Below, one piece after another: positions 11,218-52,363 of a stretch of DNA of 64,000 bases. The position numbers and the translations under genes were made by a program. The stretch lies in sequence record OM386662.1; one strand, 5' to 3'. The notes under the pieces were generated by a model, which saw only the letters and a program-made list of their open reading frames with translations, was not told the origin of the DNA and made no database searches. How positions within the stretch are numbered: position 1 is the stretch's first letter; the number at the start of each line of letters is the position of its first letter. This DNA comes from Escherichia phage vB_EcoM_ESCO47.

Positions 11218-11533
11218 TATTAAACCGGTCGATGAGGCCGGTCTCTCCGAAAAAGAGTTAGCGGTAAAACAAGACAAAGATGATATTGCTAAACTCCTTG
11301 ATCGCCAAGAAAATGGCTTCTTAATCGAGTCTATGGTAAATCAGTACGGTATGACTTATTTAGAAGCAACGACTGCTTTTCTGGAAGAGAACTCTATTCC
11401 TGAAACCCAGTTTGCTAAATTTATTCCATCAGGAATTATTGAAAAAATTACAAGCGAAGCCGTTGATGAGAATATGCTTCGCCCTTCAATTGCTCGCGGT
11501 GAAAAAACTAATACGTTAGATTTCTTATTATGA
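11195..11533 (+). CDS. 33: gp33 late transcription co-activator
   Basis: Internal ATG at 11195 gives 112 aa MTLFSLSDIKPVDEAGLSEKELA..., matching T4 gp33 length; stop overlaps gene 59 start (ATGA). Confidence 0.8.
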   Translation: MTLFSLSDIKPVDEAGLSEKELAVKQDKDDIAKLLDRQENGFLIESMVNQYGMTYLEATTAFLEENSIPETQFAKFIPSGIIEKITSEAVDENMLRPSIARGEKTNTLDFLL

Positions 11534-28277: not shown

Positions 28278-28318
28278 TCTAACAAACAGGGGCTTCGGCC
28301 CCTATTGAGGAAATTAAA

Positions 28319-28513
28319 ATGAATTTATTTGTATCGCAAACTGTCCGGTTAAAAGGCGATGGAATTCCCGGAATGATTTCTAAAGTGTTACCTGCATTTA
28401 AATTGGGAGATATTCAGATCAAAGAAACCTATGTGGTCTTATGGGTAGACGGTACTGAAGATGTTCGTATGGGTTCTGAATTAGCAGTAATCAAATGTTT
28501 AAAGCGAGGATAA
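28319..28513 (+). CDS. Hypothetical small protein
   Basis: 64-aa ORF with SD GAGGAAA upstream. Confidence 0.45.
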   Translation: MNLFVSQTVRLKGDGIPGMISKVLPAFKLGDIQIKETYVVLWVDGTEDVRMGSELAVIKCLKRG

Positions 28514-28638
28514 TATGATTAAGAAGCTAATCCAAAAATTGCTTGGCACTGAAATAGTTGAAGTTACTTATCGTGTGACTGACGTAAGCCCACGGACCCG
28601 AAATATTGGACCGTACTAAAACAATTGAGAGATTCATT

Positions 28639-29475
28639 ATGAAACCCGTGATTTTAACCGATATTGATGGAGTATGTTTGAGCTGGCAGTCAGGTCTTCC
28701 ATATTTTGCACAAAAATATAATCTGCCTTTAGAACATATCCTTAAAATGATTCAAGACGAAAAGTTTATTGCTCCTGGTAAACTTTTCAATACTGACGAT
28801 AATCTTGGTAAACAATTAATCGAAAAATATAATTGTTCTGATTTTATTCGTTATTTAGCTCCATATACTGACGCTTTGCGTGTAATCAATAAGCTCAAAT
28901 CCGACTACAATTTTGTAGCTGTAACGGCTCTAGGTGATTCAATTGATGCCCGTTTGAATAGACAATTTAATCTAAACGCATTGTTCCCTGGCGCTTTCTC
29001 AGAAGTTATGATGTGCGGTCATGATTCTTCAAAGGAACAATTGTTTAAAAAGGCTAAAGAGAAATATAATATTGTATGTTATGTCGATGATTTGGCTCAC
29101 CACTGTGACCATGCATCAGAAATTCTTAATGTGCCGGTATACTGGTTAGCTCGTGGTGAACGTGATGCAATTCCACGTACTGCACAACGTGTTTATACGT
29201 GGGACGATATTGAGCATCGTTTGGTTCCACCCGAGCATAATTCAGATTCAGATCGTGAAGACCTTTTAAAACGATTGGCGGATTTGCTTAAAGAATCCGG
29301 TGCAACAAGTCCAGGTGCGTGGCCTAATCAAATTGGCGCTCCGTCGAATCCGTATACCTGGCGAACCCCAGGACCAACCGATATGCAGCCTCATTGGCGA
29401 TACACTAATGTAGGCGAACATCCTGTTCCTCCGTATTGGGCAGTTCCACAAGGTTACGGCACAACTAAGGGTTAA
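28639..29475 (+). CDS. HAD-superfamily hydrolase-like protein with Pro/Trp-rich C-terminal tail
   Basis: ATG at 28639; N-terminus MKPVILTDIDGVCLSW carries the HAD motif I (DxDG); C-terminal 55 residues are Pro/Trp/Tyr-rich. Confidence 0.6.
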   Translation: MKPVILTDIDGVCLSWQSGLPYFAQKYNLPLEHILKMIQDEKFIAPGKLFNTDDNLGKQLIEKYNCSDFIRYLAPYTDALRVINKLKSDYNFVAVTALGDSIDARLNRQFNLNALFPGAFSEVMMCGHDSSKEQLFKKAKEKYNIVCYVDDLAHHCDHASEILNVPVYWLARGERDAIPRTAQRVYTWDDIEHRLVPPEHNSDSDREDLLKRLADLLKESGATSPGAWPNQIGAPSNPYTWRTPGPTDMQPHWRYTNVGEHPVPPYWAVPQGYGTTKG

Positions 29476-39456: not shown

Positions 39457-40205
39457 TTTTTATGGTCCTTTTCTACTAATGTTAAAGCAATACCACGTTC
39501 AACAGGAATCATTTGCATAATAGAATCCAATGTGTATTGACTCTTTACTAGTGAATGGTTTATCTGATAGAATGTAAAAATCTCATCAGGGTTAACTAAC
39601 AATTTAAAAACCTCTAAGATGTCAGTATATGTTTTAACATGACGTTCACAACAACATAATCTAAGGGTCAAATTAATAGGGTTCATAGAAGCAATAACCT
39701 TCTCGAGTGAGTCAATGTCTATTGCTTCTATTACTTGGATTTGGTTCTCTTCAGTCAAATCATTCCATGGGTACCATTCATCATTATAATATATTTCTTT
39801 TATGTTTTCACTTATCATTAATGCCTTGTTGTCATAAAACTTTTCAGGGAAAGAAAAACGTATTTTTATACCAGCAACATCAAGTTCAGGTTCGACTAGT
39901 TCTTTTTGATATATCTCAAATGGTGCAGTTTTTTCTTTAGAGCATTTAGGGCAAGTGAAAATAACGGGAACTTTTGTTTTGCCTATAGAGCCTGCAAAAA
40001 CTTGCAGGAATATAAATGGTTGCCATGTTTTAGGGTATTCGTTAAAATAATCATCAATCAGATCGGCAATTATTTCTTTTTGTTCTTGCGGCGAACGATG
40101 TTCGATATCATTTCTAACTAGTAAAAAGTCTCTATAATCCGCCACAGTGAACGGCTTGAAACGATGAACACCATCCGGTAATTTACAACGAATTATATTA
40201 GCCAT
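39453..40205 (-). CDS. 51: gp51 baseplate hub assembly protein
   Basis: 250-aa ORF; size matches T4 gp51; late promoter TATAAATA 18 nt upstream. Confidence 0.8.
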
Positions 40206-40222
40206 AATTACTCCTTTTCTAT

Positions 40223-40230
40223 TATTTATA
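40223..40230 (-). promoter_or_regulatory. Late promoter TATAAATA for gene 51
   Basis: Plus-strand tatttata, 18 nt upstream of the gene 51 start, overlapping the gene 26 late promoter. Confidence 0.55.
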
Positions 40231-40234
40231 AATA
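40227..40234 (+). promoter_or_regulatory. Late promoter TATAAATA for gene 26
   Basis: tataaata 19 nt upstream of the gene 26 ATG. Confidence 0.55.
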
Positions 40235-40252
40235 CACAATAAAGGAGTTAAC

Positions 40253-40879
40253 ATGTACAAATATACGTTTACCGTACGTTTAGGCGATAAAGAAGTGAAT
40301 TGTAGAGCCTTTACTTTAAAAGAATATTTAGGACTTATAGGTGCGCGGGCTACCGGTACTATTGAATCAGCAGTGAACAATATTATCACTAATTGCTCTA
40401 ACGCTAAAAACTTGACTAAACAAGAAGCCGAGTTATTGTTGGTAAATTTGTGGGCACATTCGTTAGGTGAAGTGAATCAAGAACACACCTGGAATTGTTC
40501 CTGTGGGCATTCATTTCAAGTCTATATGAATTTATTGCACACTCAATTGGATGAACAGGCCGATCCCTGGTATTCGTTTAGTGGTATTAAAATTAAGTTC
40601 CGTCAACCTAAATTATTTGACGATAAAAATATCGCATTAATGATTGCTTCATGTATTGAGGCTGTTTTTGTCAATGGAGAGTCCATCCCTGTTGAAGATT
40701 TAACTGAAGCGGAAATAAACGACCTTTACGGCCTTATAACAGAAGATGACATGATCAATATTAAAAATCTTTTGGTATCGCCATCAATTTATCTGGCAAC
40801 CCCTATTAAATGTCCCAAATGTGGGGCGTCACACGTTCACACAATACGAGGCCTCAAAGAATTCTTTGAGTTACTATAA
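40253..40879 (+). CDS. 26: gp26 baseplate hub subunit
   Basis: 208-aa ORF, same length as T4 gp26; divergent from gene 51. Confidence 0.8.
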   Translation: MYKYTFTVRLGDKEVNCRAFTLKEYLGLIGARATGTIESAVNNIITNCSNAKNLTKQEAELLLVNLWAHSLGEVNQEHTWNCSCGHSFQVYMNLLHTQLDEQADPWYSFSGIKIKFRQPKLFDDKNIALMIASCIEAVFVNGESIPVEDLTEAEINDLYGLITEDDMINIKNLLVSPSIYLATPIKCPKCGASHVHTIRGLKEFFELL

Positions 40880-41277
40880 TGTCTAATATCAATAAACTTT
40901 ATTCAGATATCGACCCGGAAATGCGTATGGATTGGAACAAGGACGTTGCTCGTTCTTTAGGACTTCGTTCTATTAAAAATAGTCTTCTTGGCATAGTGAC
41001 AACTAGAAAAGGCTCGCGCCCCTTCGACCCTGAATTTGGATGCGATTTGGTCGACGAACTTTTCGAGAACATGACACCGCTTACAGCCGATACGATTGAG
41101 CGTAATATCCAGGCAGCAGTCCGTAACTATGAGCCGCGCATCGACAAACTTTCTGTAAGTGTAACGCCAGTATATGATGACTATACAGTTATAGTAGAGA
41201 TTAGATTTTCGGTCGTAGATAACCCTGATGATATCGAACAAATCAAACTTCAGTTAGCATCAAGCAATAGAGTGTAA
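40879..41277 (+). CDS. 25: gp25 baseplate wedge subunit
   Basis: 132-aa ORF, same length as T4 gp25. Confidence 0.85.
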   Translation: MSNINKLYSDIDPEMRMDWNKDVARSLGLRSIKNSLLGIVTTRKGSRPFDPEFGCDLVDELFENMTPLTADTIERNIQAAVRNYEPRIDKLSVSVTPVYDDYTVIVEIRFSVVDNPDDIEQIKLQLASSNRV

Positions 41278-41302
41278 TGCTTCAAGCAAAACTGTGTATA
41301 AT
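41276..41302 (+). promoter_or_regulatory. Middle promoter upstream of uvsY (MotA box aaTGCTTCA plus TATAAT)
   Basis: MotA box 41276-41284, 12-nt spacer, TGTGTATAAT ending 41302. Confidence 0.55.
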
Positions 41303-41357
41303 GGTTTTAGGTCCTTCCGATACAGCCGGGAGATTATTAGTTAAAAGAGAGAATATT

Positions 41358-41771
41358 ATGAAGCTGGAAGATTTACAGGAAGAGTTAGACGCAGACTTAG
41401 CTATTGATACGACAAAGTTGCAATATGAGACGGCGAATAATGTTAAGTTATACAGCAAATGGCTACGTAAGCACTCATTTATTCGTAAAGAAATGTTGCG
41501 TATAGAGACTCAGAAGAAAACTGCTCTAAAAGCAAGATTAGACTACTACTCGGGACGAGGTGACGGTGATGAATTCAGTATGGACCGATACGAGAAATCT
41601 GAAATGAAAACTGTCCTGGCTGCAGATAAAGATATTCTTAAGGTAGAGACATCTTTACAATACTGGGGAATTTTACTTGAGTTCTGTAGTGGTGCACTTG
41701 ACGCAGTTAAGTCTCGTAGTTTTGCACTTAAACATATCCAAGATATGAGAGCCTTTGAAGCGGGGCAATAA
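41358..41771 (+). CDS. uvsY: UvsY recombination mediator
   Basis: ATG at 41358 gives 137 aa MKLEDLQEELDADLAIDTTKLQYETANN..., matching T4 UvsY; MotA-box middle promoter at 41276..41302. Confidence 0.9.
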   Translation: MKLEDLQEELDADLAIDTTKLQYETANNVKLYSKWLRKHSFIRKEMLRIETQKKTALKARLDYYSGRGDGDEFSMDRYEKSEMKTVLAADKDILKVETSLQYWGILLEFCSGALDAVKSRSFALKHIQDMRAFEAGQ

Positions 41772-41995
41772 TGCGTTATTCAATTGAAGATGCCTTTAAT
41801 AATGATGAAGAATTTGAAACTGAAATTAAATTCTTAATGGAAAAGTATCGTCTACGTCGTCAGGATATTCGTATCCTGGCAGACCACCCTTGTGGCGAAG
41901 ACGTCCTTTATATTAAAGGGAAGTTTGCCGGGTACATCGACGAGTATTTTTATACAAAAGATATGGGTATCGATATGTGCATGCGAGTGGTATAA
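41771..41995 (+). CDS. Hypothetical protein (uvsY.-1 position)
   Basis: 74-aa ORF starting at the uvsY stop. Confidence 0.5.
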   Translation: MRYSIEDAFNNDEEFETEIKFLMEKYRLRRQDIRILADHPCGEDVLYIKGKFAGYIDEYFYTKDMGIDMCMRVV

Positions 41996-42027
41996 ATAGA
42001 TATGTAATTTCAACTTAGGAGGCAATC

Positions 42028-42195
42028 ATGTCAGATAAGATTTGTGTTGTCTGTAAAACTCCAATCGATTCTGCATTGGTTGTTGAAACAGACAAAGGTC
42101 CAGCACATCCTGGTCCTTGTTATAATTATGTCAAACAATTGCCGGTTTCAGAAAGTTCAGAAGAGCAATTGAACGAAACCCAACTTTTACTATAG
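42028..42195 (+). CDS. Hypothetical small Cys-containing protein (uvsY.-2 position; not in ORF track)
   Basis: 55-codon ORF read from sequence with strong SD AGGAGG 6 nt upstream; MSDKICVVCKTPIDS...GPCYNY (CxxC...C). Confidence 0.45.
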   Translation: MSDKICVVCKTPIDSALVVETDKGPAHPGPCYNYVKQLPVSESSEEQLNETQLLL

Positions 42196-42252
42196 TGTTA
42201 CCTTTTTTGCCTATGGTTTTTGGCCCTTCCAAAAAGGTCGGGCCTTTTTTAA

Positions 42253-42486
42253 TTAGAAGTCTTCTTCCTCATCCTCATCATCGTCGCCTTCAAGTTCGGC
42301 ACGCTTACCTGCTAAGGCATCCCTGACAGAAATATCATCTGTATCTTTTAATTCCGTTTCTTTTATACGTTTCTTATAATAAGCTTCCAATTCTTCAAGC
42401 CCTTCTAAGGTATGACAACTAGCAATTTTACCCATGAATTCGTCAATAGATGCTTCGTATAAAAATTGTTTAAATTCAAGTACCAT
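42253..42486 (-). CDS. Hypothetical acidic protein (uvsW.1 position)
   Basis: 77-aa ORF directly downstream of uvsW with SD AGGAG; acidic C-terminus. Confidence 0.55.
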   Translation of the reverse strand: MVLEFKQFLYEASIDEFMGKIASCHTLEGLEELEAYYKKRIKETELKDTDDISVRDALAGKRAELEGDDDEDEEEDF

Positions 42487-42511
42487 TTTTATCTCCTAAG
42501 GGCCGAAGCCC

Positions 42512-44026
42512 TTATAAATTAATTGTTTTCATTACATAGTTAAATTTCTCATCAGCGTAACGTTGGATACGATCAATACCGTGTTTTAACAAGTAATTAA
42601 GATGAGTATACTTCTTTTTAGTATTTAATGATTTAGGTTTTACACCTGCGTCATCGATGAGATCCCAAACTGTAGCAACAGCTTTAGAACCATGCTTACG
42701 AAGCACACGACCTACGGTTTGAAGTACGATAATTTTTGATTTAACACCATGGGCGAAAATAACATGATGAAGATTCTTGACTGAAATACCAGTAGAGAAT
42801 ACTCCATATGATGCGACAATAATAATGCCTTTACCATTTTCTGCCATGACTTTAAGCGCGTTACGTGTTTCAGTATCAACTTCACCTGATACGTAATAAA
42901 CTTTTTCGTATCCAAGCTCTTTAATAGCTTCAAATATTTCTTTACCGTGTGTAACATGTTTAAACATTACAAAGGCGTTCTCGTCTTTCTTAGCCAATTT
43001 GACTGAAAGTTGAGCAATCCACTTTGTACGTCGTTTTAGTCCGGTAATAATTTTAACTTCTTCTTGGTATGTTTTACCTTTTAATTTAATGGTGAATTCG
43101 TCCGGATAACGAAGGAAAATACTATTAATCTTAAGCTCAGTTACCTGTCCGTCTTCCATTAATTTAGACGTGCTAACAGGACGGAAGATTTCGCCGAACA
43201 TACCTACGTACTGCATTACATTGGCTTTTCCGTCTCTTAATGAGCCAGATAAACCGAATTTAAACATGCAATTATTTAATCCTGAGATGATTGAAGAAAT
43301 ACTTTTGCCTGTTGCTAAGTGGCATTCATCGTTCATCATCATACCGAACTGAGAGAACCATTCTTTAGGCTGCTTAACTACCGTTTGCCATGTGCCAACA
43401 ATAATTGGAGCGTCGTTTTTAGATTTGTCCACTTTATCAGCACCACCGCCAATTTTCTTAATCATCGAATGACTAAACAAGCGATAATCAACAAAATCAT
43501 TAGCCATCTGGGTTGTCAATGCTGTTGTAGGGACGATAATGAGAATTTTACCTTCATAGTTCTCTAGATAATACCGAGCTAAAAGTGCTTGGATTAGTGA
43601 TTTACCTGCTGATGTCGGAAGGTTTAAAATTCGACGACGATTAACTAGTCCTTCATATACTGCATCTTTTTGATACCAATGTGGTTCGATTTTGGCGTTG
43701 CCCGAATAAATTTCTTGTTTAGAAAGCCACGCGTCAAAATCTTCCCTGGTAAGGTCTTCGGTCTCAAAGATTTTAGGGTCAATCCATACAGAATAACTCA
43801 TATTGTTACAGAACTTTTTTATTTGTCCTACAAGTCCATATGGTAACAAACGATTGTAATCTAAAAGACGAATTCTACCATCCCAGTTCCCATATTTGTA
43901 ACGCGGGTTAAATTTATACCCGTCAGCTTCAAAGCTAAAAAAGTCACGAAGTTCGTAAAACGTACTTTCGTCGCATTCAATGCGAACGTGACTAAAATCA
44001 TAAAAATGTACTTTAATGTCAGTCAT
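42512..44026 (-). CDS. uvsW: UvsW DNA/RNA helicase
   Basis: 504-aa ORF with helicase motifs (LPTSAGKS Walker A, DECH box); matches T4 UvsW. Confidence 0.95.
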   Translation of the reverse strand: MTDIKVHFYDFSHVRIECDESTFYELRDFFSFEADGYKFNPRYKYGNWDGRIRLLDYNRLLPYGLVGQIKKFCNNMSYSVWIDPKIFETEDLTREDFDAWLSKQEIYSGNAKIEPHWYQKDAVYEGLVNRRRILNLPTSAGKSLIQALLARYYLENYEGKILIIVPTTALTTQMANDFVDYRLFSHSMIKKIGGGADKVDKSKNDAPIIVGTWQTVVKQPKEWFSQFGMMMNDECHLATGKSISSIISGLNNCMFKFGLSGSLRDGKANVMQYVGMFGEIFRPVSTSKLMEDGQVTELKINSIFLRYPDEFTIKLKGKTYQEEVKIITGLKRRTKWIAQLSVKLAKKDENAFVMFKHVTHGKEIFEAIKELGYEKVYYVSGEVDTETRNALKVMAENGKGIIIVASYGVFSTGISVKNLHHVIFAHGVKSKIIVLQTVGRVLRKHGSKAVATVWDLIDDAGVKPKSLNTKKKYTHLNYLLKHGIDRIQRYADEKFNYVMKTINL

Positions 44027-44055
44027 GTCAAATTACCATGTAATAAATATAGTTA

Positions 44056-44063
44056 TATTTATA
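44056..44063 (-). promoter_or_regulatory. Late promoter TATAAATA for uvsW
   Basis: Plus-strand tatttata, 30 nt upstream of the uvsW start. Confidence 0.5.
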
Positions 44064-44076
44064 ATGAGGAAATACC

Positions 44077-44745
44077 ATGATCGATAAAGACTATATTGAA
44101 GAGTTACGTGCTCTTTCTGATAAAAAGGAAGCCAAAGCTAAACTGTTTGAATATGCGGGACAATTTGGCATTAGTGTTAAGAAAACAAAATCATTCGATA
44201 ATATTGTTATTGATATCGAAGAAGCTCTTAACGCACTGGCTGATGAACCATTACCTGAAACTGATGGATTATCTATCACCGATTTAATTACTGCCGCAGA
44301 TGATGTAGACGGTGTTAATTTCACCAACGAAGAAGTTAAAGAAGAAGCTATTCTGTTGTTTGACTCTCCAACAGAACAAGTTGAAGTATTAGAAGTTGTC
44401 GAACAAGAAAAAGAATTCGACCATGATAAATTCGAAGAAGCAATTACTCAGGTTGTTGAATCCGAAAAAGAGCCTGAGACAGAGGTAAATAAAGAAGTAA
44501 AATTTGTTCTGCCTGAAAATTTTAGTCCTACACTCATTAAATTAGGCAAAGGCCTAGGATATGTTACTGTTCCTTGGTGGATTTATCAATGGATAACCGA
44601 AACCCCAGATTGGAAATCTCGCCCAACTAGTTTTGTGCATGCTTCTGCTCACCAAACATTATTTAGCTTAATTTATTATATTAATCGCGATGGATCAGTT
44701 CTAATTCGTGAAACTCGTAATTCTTCTTTCGTAACATTAAAATAA
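44077..44745 (+). CDS. inh: Probable Inh (inhibitor of prohead protease)
   Basis: 222-aa ORF at the T4 inh position immediately upstream of hoc; acidic N-terminal half; synteny-based. Confidence 0.6.
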   Translation: MIDKDYIEELRALSDKKEAKAKLFEYAGQFGISVKKTKSFDNIVIDIEEALNALADEPLPETDGLSITDLITAADDVDGVNFTNEEVKEEAILLFDSPTEQVEVLEVVEQEKEFDHDKFEEAITQVVESEKEPETEVNKEVKFVLPENFSPTLIKLGKGLGYVTVPWWIYQWITETPDWKSRPTSFVHASAHQTLFSLIYYINRDGSVLIRETRNSSFVTLK

Positions 44746-44754
44746 GGATAACTT

Positions 44755-45885
44755 ATGGCTTTTACAGTTGATATAACTCCTAAAACACCAACAGGGGTTA
44801 TTGATGAAACCAAACAGTTTACTGCTGCACCTAGTGGTCAGGCTGAAGGTGGAACTATTACCTATGCATGGAGTGTAGATAATGTTCCTCAGGAAGGATC
44901 AGAGGCAACTTTTGATTATGTGTTAAAAGGACCTGCTGGTCAAAAGACTATTAAGGTAGTTGCAACAAATACTATTCCTGATTCTGAAGCTGAAACAGCT
45001 GAAATTAGTACAACTATTACAGTTCAAAACAAGACACAGACAACTACCTTGGCAGTAACTCCTGATAGCCCCGCGGCTGGAGTAATCGGAACAGCCGTTG
45101 AATTTACCGCTGCTTTAGCTTCGCAGCCACCGGACGCAAACGCTACTTATCAATGGTATGTAGATGATTCTCCTGTGGACGAAGCAACTTCTGCTACATT
45201 CAATTACACTCCTACCACAAGCGGAGTTAAAACAATTAAGTGTGTGGCTCAAGTAACCGCGACAGATTATGATGCAAAGGAAGTTACTTCGAATGAAGTA
45301 TCATTAACGGTTAATAAGAAGACAATGAATCCACAGGTTACATTGACTCCTCCTTCTATTAACGTTAAGCAAGATGCTTCAGCTACATTTACCGCTAATG
45401 TCACTGATACTCCAGAAGAAGCGCAAATTGAGTATTCATGGAAGAAAGATTCTTCTCCTGTAGAAGGGACAACTAATGTATATACCGTTGATACCTCATC
45501 TATTGGAAGTCAAACTATTGAAGTTACTGTAACTGTTACTGCTACTGATTATGATAGCAAAACTATTACAGCAGAAGGTCAAGTTCAGGTAACCGATAAA
45601 GTTGCTCCGGAACCAGAAGGTGAATTACCTTATGTTCATCCTCTTCCACATCGTACTTCAGCTTACATCTGGTGCGGTTGGTGGGTTATGGATGAAATAC
45701 AAAAAATGACTGAAGAAGGTAAAGATTGGAAAACTGAAGATCCAGATAGTAAATACTACCTGCATCGTTACACTCTTCAGAAGATGATGCAAGACTATCC
45801 GGAAGTTGATGTTCAAGAATCACGTAATGGATACATCATCCATAAAACTGCTTTGGAAACTGGTATCATCTATACATATCCATAA
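44755..45885 (+). CDS. hoc: Hoc highly immunogenic outer capsid protein
   Basis: 376-aa ORF MAFTVDITPKTPTGVIDETKQFTA... with repeated Ig-like domains and C-terminal ...ETGIIYTYP; matches T4 Hoc. Confidence 0.9.
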   Translation: MAFTVDITPKTPTGVIDETKQFTAAPSGQAEGGTITYAWSVDNVPQEGSEATFDYVLKGPAGQKTIKVVATNTIPDSEAETAEISTTITVQNKTQTTTLAVTPDSPAAGVIGTAVEFTAALASQPPDANATYQWYVDDSPVDEATSATFNYTPTTSGVKTIKCVAQVTATDYDAKEVTSNEVSLTVNKKTMNPQVTLTPPSINVKQDASATFTANVTDTPEEAQIEYSWKKDSSPVEGTTNVYTVDTSSIGSQTIEVTVTVTATDYDSKTITAEGQVQVTDKVAPEPEGELPYVHPLPHRTSAYIWCGWWVMDEIQKMTEEGKDWKTEDPDSKYYLHRYTLQKMMQDYPEVDVQESRNGYIIHKTALETGIIYTYP

Positions 45886-45890
45886 TCGAA

Positions 45891-45920
45891 AGGGGCTTCG
45901 GCCCCTTTCTTCGTTTTTAA
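45891..45920 (+). terminator. Rho-independent terminator after hoc
   Basis: AGGGGC-UUCG-GCCCCU followed by U-rich tract. Confidence 0.6.
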
Positions 45921-45986
45921 AGCATACAAAACACATCTTGAGATTGATGTATATAATGGCACAAACCAAATAATACGGGATTGATT

Positions 45987-46181
45987 ATGAGAGTTGAAGT
46001 TGAAGTTTATACATTACATGAGGCGGGATTTTCATTCGTAGAAATTGCTCAAAAAATCGGTTTACAACCTAAAGAAGTTGGATTACTATGGACTAAAGCC
46101 GAGACAGCTCGGTCAAAGTTTAAAGCAAAAGAAAAAGTTGTATACCGTAAACGTCTGATTAATAAAAAGGTGAAGAAATGA
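45987..46181 (+). CDS. Hypothetical small protein
   Basis: ATG at 45987; 64 aa, basic C-terminus. Confidence 0.45.
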   Translation: MRVEVEVYTLHEAGFSFVEIAQKIGLQPKEVGLLWTKAETARSKFKAKEKVVYRKRLINKKVKK

Positions 46182-46429
46182 GTTTTGCACAGGAATTAAG
46201 AGAAAGGGCTCTGGCCACTAAAGCCAATTTGTTGAGTGATTTTATTACTAACTTCTCAGTAATAGCAGAGAAAGCTGCTGACAAAGGTCAGACATAATTC
46301 ACGTACTATCCATCAAAGAATGATTTAACTATCACCGAGCAAATCGGGCAATGGTTACGTGATAATGGCTTTCAGTATAAAATTAATCATGACCAGCGTG
46401 ATGGGCACTGGATAGAAATCAAGTTCTAA
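46178..46429 (+). pseudogene. Small ORF interrupted by in-frame TAA (39 codons + TAA + 43 open codons)
   Basis: ATG 46178 overlaps upstream stop (ATGA); frame stops at TAA 46295-46297 yet stays open with no canonical start codon until TAA 46427-46429, which abuts the rnlB middle promoter. Confidence 0.3.
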
Positions 46430-46430
46430 T

Positions 46431-46457
46431 ATGCTTTACATTTTTTGATGGTATAAT
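46431..46457 (+). promoter_or_regulatory. Middle promoter upstream of rnlB (MotA box aTGCTTTA plus TATAAT)
   Basis: MotA box 46431-46438, 13-nt spacer, TGGTATAAT ending 46457. Confidence 0.5.
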
Positions 46458-46548
46458 GAATCTAGGTTCTATCCATTCAAATTAAACATCTGGTCAGAGA
46501 CAGAGTCTCTGCTAATTATTTTGATATTATTATTTATAATGGTGATTT

Positions 46549-47547
46549 ATGTTTAAGAAATACAGCAGTCTTGAAAACCACTACAACTCTAAGTTTATTG
46601 AAAAACTCTACACTAATGGTTTGACTACTGGTGTTTGGGTAGCACGTGAGAAAATCCATGGGACTAACTTCTCGTTAATAATTGAACGTGACAACGTCAC
46701 ATGCGCCAAGCGCACAGGCCCTATTCTTCCAGCAGAAGATTTTTATGGTTATGAAATCGTACTCAAGAAGTATGATAGAGCTATTAAAGCCGTTCAGGAA
46801 TTCATGTACACAGCTCGAGCCGTATCATATCAAGTATTCGGTGAATTCGCTGGCGGTGGAATCCAGAAAGGTGTTGACTACGGTGAAAAAGATTTTTATG
46901 TGTTCGATATCCTTATCAATACAGAAAGTGGTGATAATACGTATTTGACCGATTACGAAATGCAAGATTTCTGTAATGAATTCGGTTTTAAAATGGCACC
47001 AATGCTTGGTCGTGGAACATTTGATGCTCTTATCACTATTCCAAACGACCTTGATTCCGTCTTAGCCGCTTATAATGCTACTGCGTCAGAAGACCTTGTC
47101 GAAGCAAATAATTGTGTATTTGATGCTAATGTTATTGGTGATAATACTACGGAAGGTTATGTTCTGAAGCCTTGTTTCCCTAAATGGCTGCCAAACGGTA
47201 CTCGTGTAGCTATTAAGTGCAAGAACTCTAAATTCAGTGAAAAGAAAAAGTCTGATAAGCCTATTAAAACTCAGGTTCCATTAACAGAAATTGACAAAAA
47301 CTTGCTTGATGTTCTAGCTTGTTATGTTACATTAAATCGTGTTAATAATGTTATTTCTAAGATTGGGACTGTAACGCCAAAAGATTTTGGCAAAGTGATG
47401 GGATTGACTGTTCAAGATATTCTGGAAGAAACTTCTCGTGAAGGTATTGTATTAACATCATCTGATAATCCGAATCTTGTTAAGAAAGAATTAGTCCGAA
47501 TGGTGCAAGATGTTCTGCGTCCTGCATGGATTGAATTAGTATCATAA
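46549..47547 (+). CDS. rnlB: RNA ligase 2
   Basis: 332-aa [24 protein letters not shown]...[17 protein letters not shown] (KxHG-type nucleotidyltransferase motif); matches T4 Rnl2. Confidence 0.9.
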
Positions 47548-47583
47548 CAAAAAAAAAAGGGACCGTAAGGTCCCTTTTTTTTT
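47548..47583. terminator. Bidirectional terminator between rnlB (plus) and gene 24 (minus)
   Basis: A11 - GGGACC-GUAA-GGUCCC - T9; U-run on both strands. Confidence 0.7.
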
Positions 47584-48865
47584 ATTCATCTATAATAATT
47601 TTAGGCAATTTAACACCGAGTAAAACAGACAAGTCCGAACGTCCTGCCATTTTATCCATGTCCCCGCCATCAATTATTCTCGCTTCTTTTTCATCTTTTG
47701 CTACTGTGTAAGGATTTGCTGATAAAGCATATCTAACCAATAATCCGATAGACGGTTGCAAGCTTTCTGGATCAACTACAACTTTAAATGCACCAACATG
47801 TTCCGGGTCATCTAAATCTACTCCTTCAGTGTATGGAGCATAAAAGATGGACCCTACAATTTCTTTTTCGCCGATATTTTCTACAACACCCACAACAACA
47901 TAATCTAACGGACTGTTGGTATCGCAGTAAAGAGGTAATCCATTTGCCAAGAATCCATAAGCATTTTGTGAAAGATACTTGTCATCTTCTGGCTTATGTT
48001 TTAACCAACCAGAAGCAGCAAGAATAGCAGCTGCACGAGCTGAGGCTACACAAAACGTTGCAGTATAAGTTGTCTCTTTTTGAATGTGTGATACCATTTC
48101 ACACACCATTCGATATAATGAACGACCTGCTTCTGGAGCGGATGCATAGCTCAAGTCAATAAATCCGGTGTCAGTAATTCCAGTAACTTTATAACGTTTC
48201 GATACAGTAATTAAAGACTGAAGAATATCTTTATTAATTTCATCAGCCATTTCAGTTGCAAGCAAATCTTCTAAGAAGTTAGGGGCATCAAATCCATTCG
48301 CTTCCAAGTCTTGCGCTAATTCAACCGTGAGACCAGTTTTAAGTTTACGGGATTTGACTGAAGTTTGCCATTTATTAATCTGGAATCTTGCATCCGCAAT
48401 TTTGCTATCAGAGCTTTCAAATTTGCTTGTTGACGCTGCGTCAGAAAATAGACGAACCTTTAAAAGAACGACTGCAATCTGAAGAGCTAACTCTAAGTCG
48501 CTTTCTTCAATATCAGCAAATGGAGTATCTTCTAACACTTTATAGACGATATTATTATATTTGAATAAATCGCCTTTATCGAGAGTTAATTTAGACTCTT
48601 CTGTTAATTCTGTGATTTGTTCTCGGTCTACATATCCAGCTTCGCCTGCATAAGTAGCACCAGTTTTAAATGTGAATTCGTTATCTGGGTTAAGATATTT
48701 GATACCATAAAAAGCAGCAACAGGTTGATTAGTTCTTTGTGTTGCTACAATGTCAGAATATATTAATTTGGTCGTAGCGCGAGTCAAAGCAACGAGATTT
48801 GGGCGACCAATTGAGTTGCTAGTAGACGTTGTAGATTCACGCAATAATTTTTGGATTTTACTCAT
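47582..48865 (-). CDS. 24: gp24 capsid vertex protein
   Basis: 427-aa ORF, same length as T4 gp24 and highly similar by inspection. Confidence 0.95.
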   Translation of the reverse strand: MSKIQKLLRESTTSTSNSIGRPNLVALTRATTKLIYSDIVATQRTNQPVAAFYGIKYLNPDNEFTFKTGATYAGEAGYVDREQITELTEESKLTLDKGDLFKYNNIVYKVLEDTPFADIEESDLELALQIAVVLLKVRLFSDAASTSKFESSDSKIADARFQINKWQTSVKSRKLKTGLTVELAQDLEANGFDAPNFLEDLLATEMADEINKDILQSLITVSKRYKVTGITDTGFIDLSYASAPEAGRSLYRMVCEMVSHIQKETTYTATFCVASARAAAILAASGWLKHKPEDDKYLSQNAYGFLANGLPLYCDTNSPLDYVVVGVVENIGEKEIVGSIFYAPYTEGVDLDDPEHVGAFKVVVDPESLQPSIGLLVRYALSANPYTVAKDEKEARIIDGGDMDKMAGRSDLSVLLGVKLPKIIIDE

Positions 48866-48892
48866 TGCATTTTTTCCTTATGTGATATAGAT

Positions 48893-48900
48893 TATTTATA
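48893..48900 (-). promoter_or_regulatory. Late promoter TATAAATA for gene 24
   Basis: Plus-strand tatttata, 28 nt upstream of the gene 24 start. Confidence 0.6.
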
Positions 48901-48906
48901 AAGATT

Positions 48907-48936
48907 GTTTACAACGTATTTGGTATGTGATACTAT
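48907..48936 (+). promoter_or_regulatory. Early promoter (GTTTAC-N18-TACTAT)
   Basis: gtttacaacgtatttggtatgtgatactat. Confidence 0.6.
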
Positions 48937-48966
48937 AGACTTATCAACTACAGAGGAGTAAACAAA

Positions 48967-49236
48967 ATGACTAAAGCACGTTTCTTACGAGATACTTTAA
49001 AAGTTCTGGAAGCTGAAGCAGTTAAGTTAGTAGAAAAATATGGTGCAAAAGTTAATGGTAATGCCTTCAACAAAGTATGGATGAAAGTTGATTCTGAAGC
49101 TCGAGCTAAAGGTTATTGGGCCACTGATAAACTTGCATCATTCAAAAACAAAGACGGTTCTCCAGCATATGTCCAAAAAGGTATGCCTAATTGGCAAAAT
49201 ATTTTGAAAACTTACATCGAAATTGCACAGAAATAA
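48967..49236 (+). CDS. Hypothetical early protein between genes 24 and 23
   Basis: 89-aa ORF with early promoter 48907..48936 and SD GAGGAG; opposite strand to flanking capsid genes. Confidence 0.55.
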   Translation: MTKARFLRDTLKVLEAEAVKLVEKYGAKVNGNAFNKVWMKVDSEARAKGYWATDKLASFKNKDGSPAYVQKGMPNWQNILKTYIEIAQK

Positions 49237-49246
49237 AACCAAAAAT

Positions 49247-49270
49247 GGGAGACCGAAGTCTCCCAAAAAT
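49247..49270 (-). terminator. UUCG-tetraloop hairpin terminator after gene 23
   Basis: GGGAGAC-UUCG-GUCUCCC on the minus strand followed by AUUUUUGG. Confidence 0.6.
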
Positions 49271-49289
49271 AAGATTTAATCAATTAAGA

Positions 49290-50858
49290 TTAGATGCCTT
49301 TTACATATACACGGCGGAAGTAAGCATTCTTACCAAGGCTGTTCAGGATAGACGGCGAACCGGACTGGATGCGAGCACCTGGAGCCTGCTGGGAACTTTC
49401 AGCAAACGGGTTAACACCGATACCGTAACGAGTTTTAAAGCCCATTACCGGCTGGAAGTTCTTAGGATCGGAACCACGCAGTGGGGTGAGTGCAACGTAA
49501 GGAGCATAGTAAATACCTGCATCCATTTCGTTAGCGCCTTTGTAACCAACGGTGAAGTAATCCTGTTTAGCATACTGGTCGATGTATACGCGGTATTTAC
49601 CACCAAGTACACCGGCGAATACAGACTTAGTAGTGTCGGTATTAAAACCAGAAGCCAGACCCTGTGCAGCGTAAGAAATACCAGTATCAACTGAAGCCAG
49701 TACGTTAACTACGTTACGGGAAGCGATAATGAAGTTACCTTCACCACGGCCGGTTTGACGAGCAATTTCAACTGCTTCTTTATCAATCTGGAACAACAGA
49801 GCTTTAAAGCTCTCACCAGCCCAACGAGCACCACGGATATCAATCGGATCCTGGAAGTCAAATACACCAGCTTTAGCACCAGCAGTATTGGTCATACCGG
49901 ATTTACCAACCTGTGCAGAGTAGTTAATCCAATCAACAACTTCACGGTTGATTTCAAGCATGATTTCAGTAGCCAGAATACCACTCAGTTCAGCATCTGC
50001 ATCCATACCGTGTACTGCACGAAGATCCTGTGCCAGTTCGATAGAGTAAGCAGCTTTCAACTGACGGGATTTAGCTTCGATAACTTGTTTATCGATACGG
50101 AAGCCCATTTCGTTCCAAGGGTTATCACTAGAACCATTGAAGCCTTCCTGAAGTTCAGCGATAGAAGTAGCCATACCTTCAGCGATTTCAACGAGTTTAC
50201 CAGCTTCAACTTGTTTCAGAACTTCTTCATCAAGTAGTTTAGGGGTGGTAGCTGCAGCATCAATAGTAACAGCTTCAACAGCCTGCAGATATGCAGAACC
50301 GGTTTCAGTGAAGAAATGATAATAAATGTCGCCAACTACAGTGGTCAGACCAGCTGCAACAGGAGCGAATGCTTGAGCGGCACCTTTACCAGAATACATT
50401 GCATCCGGAGCATACATCGGATGGAAAGCTTCTTTAGCACCGGCAGCGACAGGGTCTTTACCATATACTGCGCGAAGAGCAAATACCTGACCGGTAGGGC
50501 TGTTCATAGGCTGAACACCGCAAATATCAAAAGCGATCAGATTAGGGATAGCACGACGAACCATACCCATAACTGCCGGACCGATCTGGGTTACTGCACC
50601 AGAGGTTTGACCTGCTGCGATGTTCTGAGCATTATAACCGTGGTCACCGCCAATTTCTGCTTCGGTCAAGAAAGAACCAAATGCCTGAGCGATTTTTTCG
50701 TCTTTATATTCAGGGGATACTTCGAAATCTTTTTCCTGGTTTTCGAAGATTTTAGCGATAATAGCCTGCTTGCTATTAGCGATTTCCGGCAGGCCTTCAC
50801 CTTCCAGCAGTTCTTTCCATTTGTCTACGAGCTGAGCTTTAGTTTTGATAGTAGTCAT
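49290..50858 (-). CDS. 23: gp23 major capsid protein
   Basis: 522-aa ORF; HK97-fold major capsid protein sequence closely matching T4 gp23. Confidence 0.97.
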   Translation of the reverse strand: MTTIKTKAQLVDKWKELLEGEGLPEIANSKQAIIAKIFENQEKDFEVSPEYKDEKIAQAFGSFLTEAEIGGDHGYNAQNIAAGQTSGAVTQIGPAVMGMVRRAIPNLIAFDICGVQPMNSPTGQVFALRAVYGKDPVAAGAKEAFHPMYAPDAMYSGKGAAQAFAPVAAGLTTVVGDIYYHFFTETGSAYLQAVEAVTIDAAATTPKLLDEEVLKQVEAGKLVEIAEGMATSIAELQEGFNGSSDNPWNEMGFRIDKQVIEAKSRQLKAAYSIELAQDLRAVHGMDADAELSGILATEIMLEINREVVDWINYSAQVGKSGMTNTAGAKAGVFDFQDPIDIRGARWAGESFKALLFQIDKEAVEIARQTGRGEGNFIIASRNVVNVLASVDTGISYAAQGLASGFNTDTTKSVFAGVLGGKYRVYIDQYAKQDYFTVGYKGANEMDAGIYYAPYVALTPLRGSDPKNFQPVMGFKTRYGIGVNPFAESSQQAPGARIQSGSPSILNSLGKNAYFRRVYVKGI

Positions 50859-50875
50859 TTGTGTTAACCTTTAAA

Positions 50876-51688
50876 TTAGAAACGAGATGCGACTTTCGCA
50901 TATAAACTTACATTAGAATTCTGTTCTACCGGAGTTTCGGTATTCCCAACTGCTTCGGTAACAAAATTAAGACCGGCAGCGTCATTGTCAACGGTATTTA
51001 TACTTTCAGTAATGGCGGTTTCTTCTTTAGTAGAACCTTTAACCATTTCTACGATAGCCGACAGTTTAGTACCAAATACGTCGGAATAATCCATTCCTTC
51101 AACCAGACCAATAACTTTTTCTTTCTGAGATTCGGTCAGGTCTTTAACGCTTTCAATAATAGCGGTTTCACGCTGAACGTAATTAATATACGCATCACGT
51201 TTGGTAACTTCTTCGAACAAATGAGCAGTTTCTGCTTTATGTTCAGCCAGCTCTTCTTCCATTTCTGCAACTACATCAACGGATTCTTCTGGAACAACAA
51301 CATTGTGTTCAACGAACAGTTCTTTAAGACCACCAAGCATGGATTCGAACAAATCAGCTTTAATGCCTTTATCGACTGCGATTTGGTTTTCGGCAAGCCA
51401 TTCTTTGGCAAGATGATCAAGGAATTTAGAAGCTTGTTCAGTCAATTTTTTATCAGCTTTGTCTTCAGCGTCTTCCTTAGCCTTTTCAACTTCCTCTTCG
51501 GCTTTTTCTGCAATAGCTTTGATATGGGATTCAGCCAGTTTAACGGCTTCCTGCTTAACGGTGGCTTCGAATACAGTGCTGAAATTAGCTTTAACGTCCG
51601 GAGACAGGTCAACTGATTCGAAAACACTATTAAGAGCAACTGAAGTCTCGATATTCTGAGCTTCTTTCAAAAGTTGTTCTTTAATCAT
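50876..51688 (-). CDS. 22: gp22 prohead core scaffold protein
   Basis: 270-aa ORF, Glu/Lys/Ala-rich, ...VYAKVASRF end as in T4 gp22. Confidence 0.9.
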   Translation of the reverse strand: MIKEQLLKEAQNIETSVALNSVFESVDLSPDVKANFSTVFEATVKQEAVKLAESHIKAIAEKAEEEVEKAKEDAEDKADKKLTEQASKFLDHLAKEWLAENQIAVDKGIKADLFESMLGGLKELFVEHNVVVPEESVDVVAEMEEELAEHKAETAHLFEEVTKRDAYINYVQRETAIIESVKDLTESQKEKVIGLVEGMDYSDVFGTKLSAIVEMVKGSTKEETAITESINTVDNDAAGLNFVTEAVGNTETPVEQNSNVSLYAKVASRF

Positions 51689-51718
51689 TTTAGTGTCCTG
51701 TGGTTTAGATTACATTAT

Positions 51719-51726
51719 TATTTATA
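51719..51726 (-). promoter_or_regulatory. Late promoter TATAAATA for gene 22
   Basis: Plus-strand tatttata, 31 nt upstream of the gene 22 start, inside the 3' end of gene 21. Confidence 0.55.
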
Positions 51727-52363
51727 ATGCTTTTAAACTCTCTGCGAGAGCTTTAAATGCTTCATCAGCACTGTTTTTGGTGGAATCCACCATTGTTTCT
51801 GATTCTGAAATTTGTTTTGGAGTAACCCAAGCATCTGGAGCAGAAGGTCCCCATACGGCGTCAACGCCTACGGTTAATTTAAAACCTTCGTTAACAATAC
51901 GGTATCCTTTGTTGGTTTCAGTTAAAGAACCTAGACCACGAGAGGAAACGCCTGGAATCCAACCTGCACGTATATTAGCTGCTAATTTATCACCGGGACC
52001 ATGGTCACCTTCAATAATTCTAGCACGCCCATATACATCATTTCCTTTCCACCACATATCTTCGATAATGATAGCGGCTTGCATAGGGTCAACGTTTGCA
52101 CGAGGTGGATGATTTAATTCTCCAAGGGCTTGTTTAGTAACAACTTGCTCTTTAATATAATCCGAAACAGCTTTTTCTAAAACACGTTTAGGATATAAGC
52201 GTTTATTACGGTTAACTACTTCCGCCTGAAGAAAAATACCTTCTATATAAAGCCCTGGTTTTAAGCCAGAATCTTTTCCATCGTGAGATTCCAACATTGG
52301 AACACCGTCGATAATCTCACCGGGTTGACCCCAAGTTTCAATAAGTAACTCGGGAGTATTCAT
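51722..52363 (-). CDS. 21: gp21 prohead core protease
   Basis: 213-aa ORF ...LLIETWGQPGEIIDGVPMLESHDGKD...; matches T4 gp21. Confidence 0.9.
   Translation of the reverse strand: MNTPELLIETWGQPGEIIDGVPMLESHDGKDSGLKPGLYIEGIFLQAEVVNRNKRLYPKRVLEKAVSDYIKEQVVTKQALGELNHPPRANVDPMQAAIIIEDMWWKGNDVYGRARIIEGDHGPGDKLAANIRAGWIPGVSSRGLGSLTETNKGYRIVNEGFKLTVGVDAVWGPSAPDAWVTPKQISESETMVDSTKNSADEAFKALAESLKAL

Follow-up and report, generated by a model that had tools for sequence, protein, structure and literature searches.

A nonsense codon interrupts the conserved gene 24.2 in the sequence record of an RB69-like Escherichia phage

We analysed a 64,000-nt stretch of the genome record of Escherichia phage vB_EcoM_ESCO47 (OM386662.1; the whole stretch is hereafter the window), in which a short open reading frame (ORF) between hoc and rnlB ends at an ochre codon and the same frame then continues open. 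Megablast comparison of positions 45880–46560 and 40000–52000 with GenBank phages identifies the window as an RB69-like T-even phage of the genus Mosigvirus, with 95.6–98.4% identity to many Mosigvirus genomes in GenBank and no identical record matched. Genes in this region run in the order uvsW (minus strand), inh, hoc, 24.3, 24.2, rnlB and gene 24 (minus strand), and the local order is identical in RB69, SA79RD, UKE1 and F31. The interval between hoc and rnlB was described in a sequence-only reading of the window as a spacer, but it contains the known genes 24.3 (45987–46181) and 24.2. The features of the locus are as follows.

45888–45917, plus strand: intrinsic terminator 3′ of hoc, a GC-rich hairpin with a 9-pair stem (6 GC pairs) followed by a T run, TTCGTTTTT
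45987–46181, plus strand: gene 24.3, intact, 64 amino acids, DUF2774 (Pfam PF11242, E 8.6e-31; phrog_1566)
46178–46429, plus strand: orthologue of 24.2 (Phage_T4_Y10B family), 252 nt, 83 codons and a stop, interrupted at codon 40
46178–46297, plus strand: the ORF as it stands, 39 codons and TAA, encoding the N-terminal helix of gp24.2 only
46295–46297, plus strand: in-frame ochre TAA, with T at 46295 where CAA (Gln40) has C, and followed by T (TAAT)
46298–46429, plus strand: untranslated distal part of 24.2, 43 codons and the native TAA, encoding most of the conserved core including DQRDGxWxEIxF
46432–46457, plus strand: middle (MotA-dependent) promoter-like site for rnlB, with TGCTTTA at 46432–46438, 13 nt, and TATAAT at 46452–46457
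46549–47547, plus strand: rnlB (gene 24.1), RNA ligase 2, intact, 332 amino acids (ORF list; full-length match to SA79RD)

The two genes that flank 24.2 are intact and closely similar to those of relatives. The window gp24.3 is 98.4% identical to that of SA79RD, and the exact protein is present on 23 public contigs examined. RnlB aligns over its full length with the SA79RD RNA ligase at 98.2% identity, and its orthologues carry PF09414 and PF18043. Two ENA metagenome contigs have rnlB called at 308 amino acids (L023, 3634–4560; L031, 1804–2730), starting 71 nt later than the usual gene of 332–335 amino acids, which suggests a difference or disruption in the start region.

Just past the second stop of the 24.2 frame, where the sequence-only reading placed an rnlB middle promoter, lies a MotA-box-like TGCTTTA followed by TATAAT. 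The placement stands: the depositors of SA79RD annotate a T4-type middle promoter here (locus 2054–2078, equivalent to window 46433–46457), and the promoter-like site probably functions as a T4-type middle promoter driving rnlB. The end of 24.2 is separated from rnlB by 119 nt that bear this site. Given this gap and a middle-promoter-like site of its own, rnlB has no translational coupling to lose and polarity would be limited, and rnlB should be little affected by a stop in 24.2. Between the promoter-like site and the rnlB start codon, the leader also contains a 7-bp hairpin (46495–46511, CAGAGAC-AGA-GTCTCTG) with a weak T-rich tail, flagged as terminator-like in our scan.

Upstream of 24.3, the intrinsic terminator 3′ of hoc is annotated at the same place in SA79RD and ATK48. 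Immediately 3′ of it, the minus strand carries a perfect MotA-box-like word at 45918–45926 (TATGCTTTA), which has no −10 element at the right spacing and is probably a chance occurrence. The hoc gene itself (window 44755–45885; 89–1506 in L001 and 4613–6028 in L004) varies widely in length among close relatives, encoding 376 amino acids in the window and SA79RD, 471–472 in RB69, F31, L024 and L029, and 283 in L025, while in UKE1 (780 and 561 nt) and L028 (66 and 404 amino acids) two separate ORFs make up the gene. Window and SA79RD Hoc proteins share only 89.9% identity, whereas neighbouring genes share 97–99%. Between uvsW and inh, where the window has a 50-nt gap (44027–44076), a Logan contig (L022, 311–1042; SRR32995677) carries a gene for a 243-amino-acid, SegE-like GIY-YIG homing endonuclease with faint Pfam matches.

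Gene 24.2 opens at ATG 46178–46180, which overlaps the TGA at 46179–46181 of the upstream ORF (..AAATGAGT..), and stops at TAA 46295–46297, as the sequence reading, the ORF list and the translation all agree. A codon check likewise bears out the earlier description of 43 further open codons that contain no ATG, GTG or TTG and end at TAA 46427–46429; the sole near-start codons among them are ATC, ATT and ATA. Once repaired, the gene has 83 sense codons (39 + 1 + 43), one more than the 82 first proposed. The opposite strand offers only a trivial 41-codon ORF with a TTG start (46159–46284). Open frames of at least 43 codons after a stop make up about 5–6% of stop-to-stop intervals in the window; the open frame is thus within chance on its own, and the case is carried by homology, that is, by a gapless alignment in which the stop falls exactly on CAA.

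Comparison with relatives identifies the entire interval as one gene. The records of all relatives annotate 24.2 as one gene of 252 nt, its ATG overlapping the stop of 24.3, and the 252 nt of the window align to the intact orthologues without a gap, with the TAA exactly on a CAA codon. We assembled 23 Mosigvirus-type copies, representing 20 distinct alleles, from GenBank records, JGI metagenome contigs, and Logan, ENA and NCBI contigs that encode an identical gp24.3. Codon 40 is CAA in all 23 copies, internal stops occur in none, and across the gene the window has one private base, the T at 46295. RB69 gp24.2 (NP_861882.1) and Mosigvirus orthologues such as QZI80113.1 of vB_EcoM-172859UKE1 share the position, the 252-nt length and the ATGA overlap and are 91–98% identical to the window in nucleotide sequence, but all have CAA where the window has TAA; when codon 40 is read as Gln, the window protein is 98.8% identical to that of UKE1. 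The sequence-only reading had favoured a single gene hit by a nonsense mutation, or misread in sequencing, rather than two independent genes. Alignment to the ORFs between hoc and rnlB in T4-like phages upholds that preference: all relatives examined have one uninterrupted 252-nt gene with CAA at the stop, and among them there is no homologue that ends at the first stop and is followed by an unrelated spacer.

The TAA allele is absent from 50,697 phage records searched with 31-mers centred on the T in two haplotype backgrounds, a design in which every 28-nt megablast seed must include the T at 46295, and it is absent from JGI metagenomes searched with degenerate exact patterns. Controls carrying the CAA allele matched 24 phage records and 3 metagenome contigs. 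In IMG/VR neither the TAA pattern nor the CAA control pattern had matches, and the TAA negative there carries no weight. The 39-residue product has no exact match on record.

The repaired translation matches phrog_2416 (E 2.8e-34; residues 1–83 on a 98-position profile), and the 95% identical protein P0001, together with all orthologues adjoining gp24.3, carries PF26862 (Phage_T4_Y10B). Gene position also agrees with membership of this family, 24.2 lying between 24.3 (DUF2774) and rnlB on the same strand, and the residues of the conserved C-terminal core are all encoded at 46298–46426 in the same frame. The uninterrupted frame of the family is broken by the TAA at codon 40, and 24.2 as written is a disrupted (pseudogene) copy of the Phage_T4_Y10B family, not a functional member. 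A tblastn search with the repaired protein matches the family in 711 phage records, of which 670 cover at least 80% of its length. The order 24.3, 24.2, rnlB recurs in T4, Kosakonia phage 305, EcS1 and Kpn BM7, with only the 24.2–rnlB adjacency evident in Moon, and 24.2 adjoins rnlB in Tequatrovirus, Kanagawavirus, Kagamiyamavirus, Moonvirus and a Marfavirus. T4 gp24.2 (Y10B_BPT4, P32278; PF26862; phrog_2416) is 55% identical over the full length, shows the same synteny and shares with the window the C-terminal core F..YY....W...G......DQRDGxW.EI.F, but is intact and has 92 residues with a 9-residue N-terminal extension; its gene ends 9 nt before rnlB, where the window has the 119-nt promoter-bearing spacer. 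In T4, gp24.2 belongs to the early RNA class and the middle protein class, the same as rnlB and 24.3 (PMC9697503, supplementary files 4 and 6), indicating that the family is a real expressed protein. Gene 24.2 is an already known gene for a small expressed accessory protein, conserved in T-even phages.

Most of what is conserved in this protein lies beyond the stop. Residues invariant across genera include F41, Y44, W59, G64, Q73, D75, G76, W78, E80 and I81 past the stop, and only A34 and G37 before it. An AlphaFold2 model of P0001 (21 aligned sequences; mean pLDDT 91.8) consists of a long helix, residues 3–35, packed on a beta-alpha-alpha-beta-beta unit formed by residues 40–82, whose first strand, residues 40–43, begins at the mutated codon. 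The 39-residue product would retain the N-terminal helix and lack most of the alpha/beta core, making the allele in effect null; from this loss of the conserved core, we infer that the peptide is probably inactive. Searches for the function of gp24.2 gave no significant match in NCBIfam, PADLOC or PDB sequences, the best hit in a Pfam set that does not include PF26862 was DUF4304 (E 0.047, under its cut-off), and a literature search found nothing functional. The Mosigvirus 'Emp' peptide was rejected as gp24.2, as it is a different, 109-residue protein. A fold search with gp24.2 returned a weak R3H/Smr-like resemblance and unnamed viral proteins; a significant structural match together with the signature motif of either domain (R-x3-H for R3H, HGxG-type for Smr) was not obtained, and gp24.2 was not assigned to them.

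The distal half of the gene has evolved under constraint and shows no decay in the window. Among the intact alleles, this half differs by 1441 synonymous and 238 non-synonymous codon differences, indicating purifying selection. Comparison of the window with relatives gives 3–14 synonymous and 0–2 non-synonymous codon differences, and the amino-acid sequence of the 43 distal codons is identical to that of phage JM10. With no sign of relaxed constraint in the distal half, the change at codon 40 is either very recent or not in the phage at all.

We consider it probable that the stop is a null mutation of very recent date, possibly acquired during propagation, in an accessory gene that the phage can do without. 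A single C-to-T transition at 46295, a common spontaneous change, would have turned Gln40 (CAA) into ochre (TAA), and translation from ATG 46178 would end after 39 residues. The mutation would have arisen in the immediate lineage of the isolate or during laboratory propagation, with the downstream half still undecayed and rnlB keeping its own promoter. The T at 46295 would then be real rather than a base-call error, and 24.2 would be dispensable in the growth conditions used.

Possible, and distinctly less probable, is a fault in the record: the base may have been misread in sequencing, base calling or consensus building, or have come from a minority variant of the sequenced stock, in a phage that truly has CAA and encodes an intact 83-residue gp24.2. 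Apart from the T, no base of the gene is private to the window, the distal half is flawless, purifying selection acts on the family and the TAA allele was found nowhere else, all of which an error would explain and all of which are also compatible with one real recent mutation. A stop in a gene under purifying selection is unexpected in a fit natural phage, which somewhat favours either an artefact or a laboratory-acquired mutation, and the complete lack of decay fits an error equally well. The nature of the change argues the other way. In modern assemblies, most consensus errors are indels in homopolymers and substitutions are rare among them, whereas the T at 46295 is a base substitution in ordinary sequence context (ACATAATTC) with no homopolymer indel. 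When 83 SA79RD coding sequences were compared with the window, an in-frame stop appeared in 24.2 only, and no other window gene shared with SA79RD shows one, indicating that the assembly is not generally error-prone. The exact window Hoc and RnlB proteins were also sought as a trace of an independent assembly, and neither is on record.

The comparison with SA79RD also showed seven of its genes without a counterpart in the window, at sites near 11530, 14000, 15700, 22300 and 28300–28640. These include a homing endonuclease between genes 59 and 33, an nrdA.1-like gene, and small ORFs near 30.3–30.6 and pseT. A few neighbouring SA79RD genes match partly or at 57% identity. Both the missing and the partly matching genes seem to reflect mosaic or mobile segments and not disruptions.

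Far less probable than either a recent mutation or a faulty record is that the ochre codon is decoded, through natural readthrough or an ochre suppressor tRNA encoded by phage or host, so that some full-length gp24.2 is made. Classical T4 psu suppressor mutants provide a precedent for ochre suppression, the frame after the stop is open and undecayed, and phage tRNA genes, if any, would lie outside the 64-kb window, in which none was found. The context of the codon nevertheless speaks for termination: TAAT is the most efficient termination signal known in E. coli and closes long ORFs in the window more often than any other stop context (23 of 62), and TAA ends 48 of the 62, so that an efficient ochre suppressor would extend most phage proteins. 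The stop is present in none of the 23 relatives, which argues against a conserved recoding site, the RNA at 46270–46330 folds no better than shuffled sequence (z = −0.87), and Rfam has no match at the 24.2 locus. With an unconserved stop, a context that is not leaky and no stimulatory RNA structure, the locus does not qualify as a site of programmed readthrough or recoding, and the low rank that readthrough received at the outset holds. A real ochre codon decoded in vivo, for example by a suppressing tRNA elsewhere in the genome or in the propagation host, with the distal half under continued selection, is fractionally less credible again. Three related mechanisms were ruled out: translational bypass of the T4 gene 60 type by the gapless alignment, in which the stop stands in for exactly one sense codon; codon reassignment by the use of TAA at 48 of 62 long ORF ends; and reinitiation by the lack of an in-frame start codon in the distal part.

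Least credible of all is that the 39 codons form a complete gene with unrelated non-coding DNA behind it, or that the interval holds two separate genes, a reading already refuted by the alignments to intact orthologues: the 39-codon ORF does have a good ATG, a GGTGA Shine–Dalgarno-like sequence and a start–stop overlap with 24.3, but its product matches no gene on record, and the supposed spacer lacks a start codon, can be matched codon by codon to the distal half of the orthologues and encodes the most conserved motif of the family.

A second disrupted copy of 24.2 occurs in the Tequatrovirus Shigella phage pSs-1 (KM501444), again between an intact 24.3 and an intact rnlB (L021, 7815–8095, minus strand). 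There, one nucleotide of an A5 run is deleted near codon 24, whereas the lesion of the window is a substitution; only a 33-residue C-terminal ORF is annotated in pSs-1, and 'gp191' is missing from its gene numbering. The deletion could be a homopolymer sequencing error, for which an A5 run is typical, or a real frameshift, and the broken copy fits either 24.2 being dispensable or a place where record errors surface. Classical T4 ochre and amber nonsense mutants, which are laboratory-selected conditional lethals in essential genes and are grown on suppressor hosts, resemble the window 24.2 in that one transition puts a chain-terminating codon into a gene that is otherwise intact. Unlike these mutants, the window shows no sign of deliberate mutagenesis, and 24.2 is a small accessory gene.

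The interrupted frame belongs to a familiar, conserved gene: either an accessory gene has been knocked out in the ordinary way or a base was miscalled, and no new kind of element is involved. Its significance is small and mainly for annotation and quality control: the proper annotation is gene 24.2 of the Phage_T4_Y10B family carrying a nonsense disruption, or a corrected base if the record is at fault, and not a 39-codon gene and a spacer. If the mutation is real, the phage naturally lacks a working copy of an expressed gene that is conserved in T-even phages and adjoins RNA ligase 2; its plaque growth on the isolation host would show that 24.2 is dispensable there, and it would provide a ready-made strain in which to search for a phenotype.
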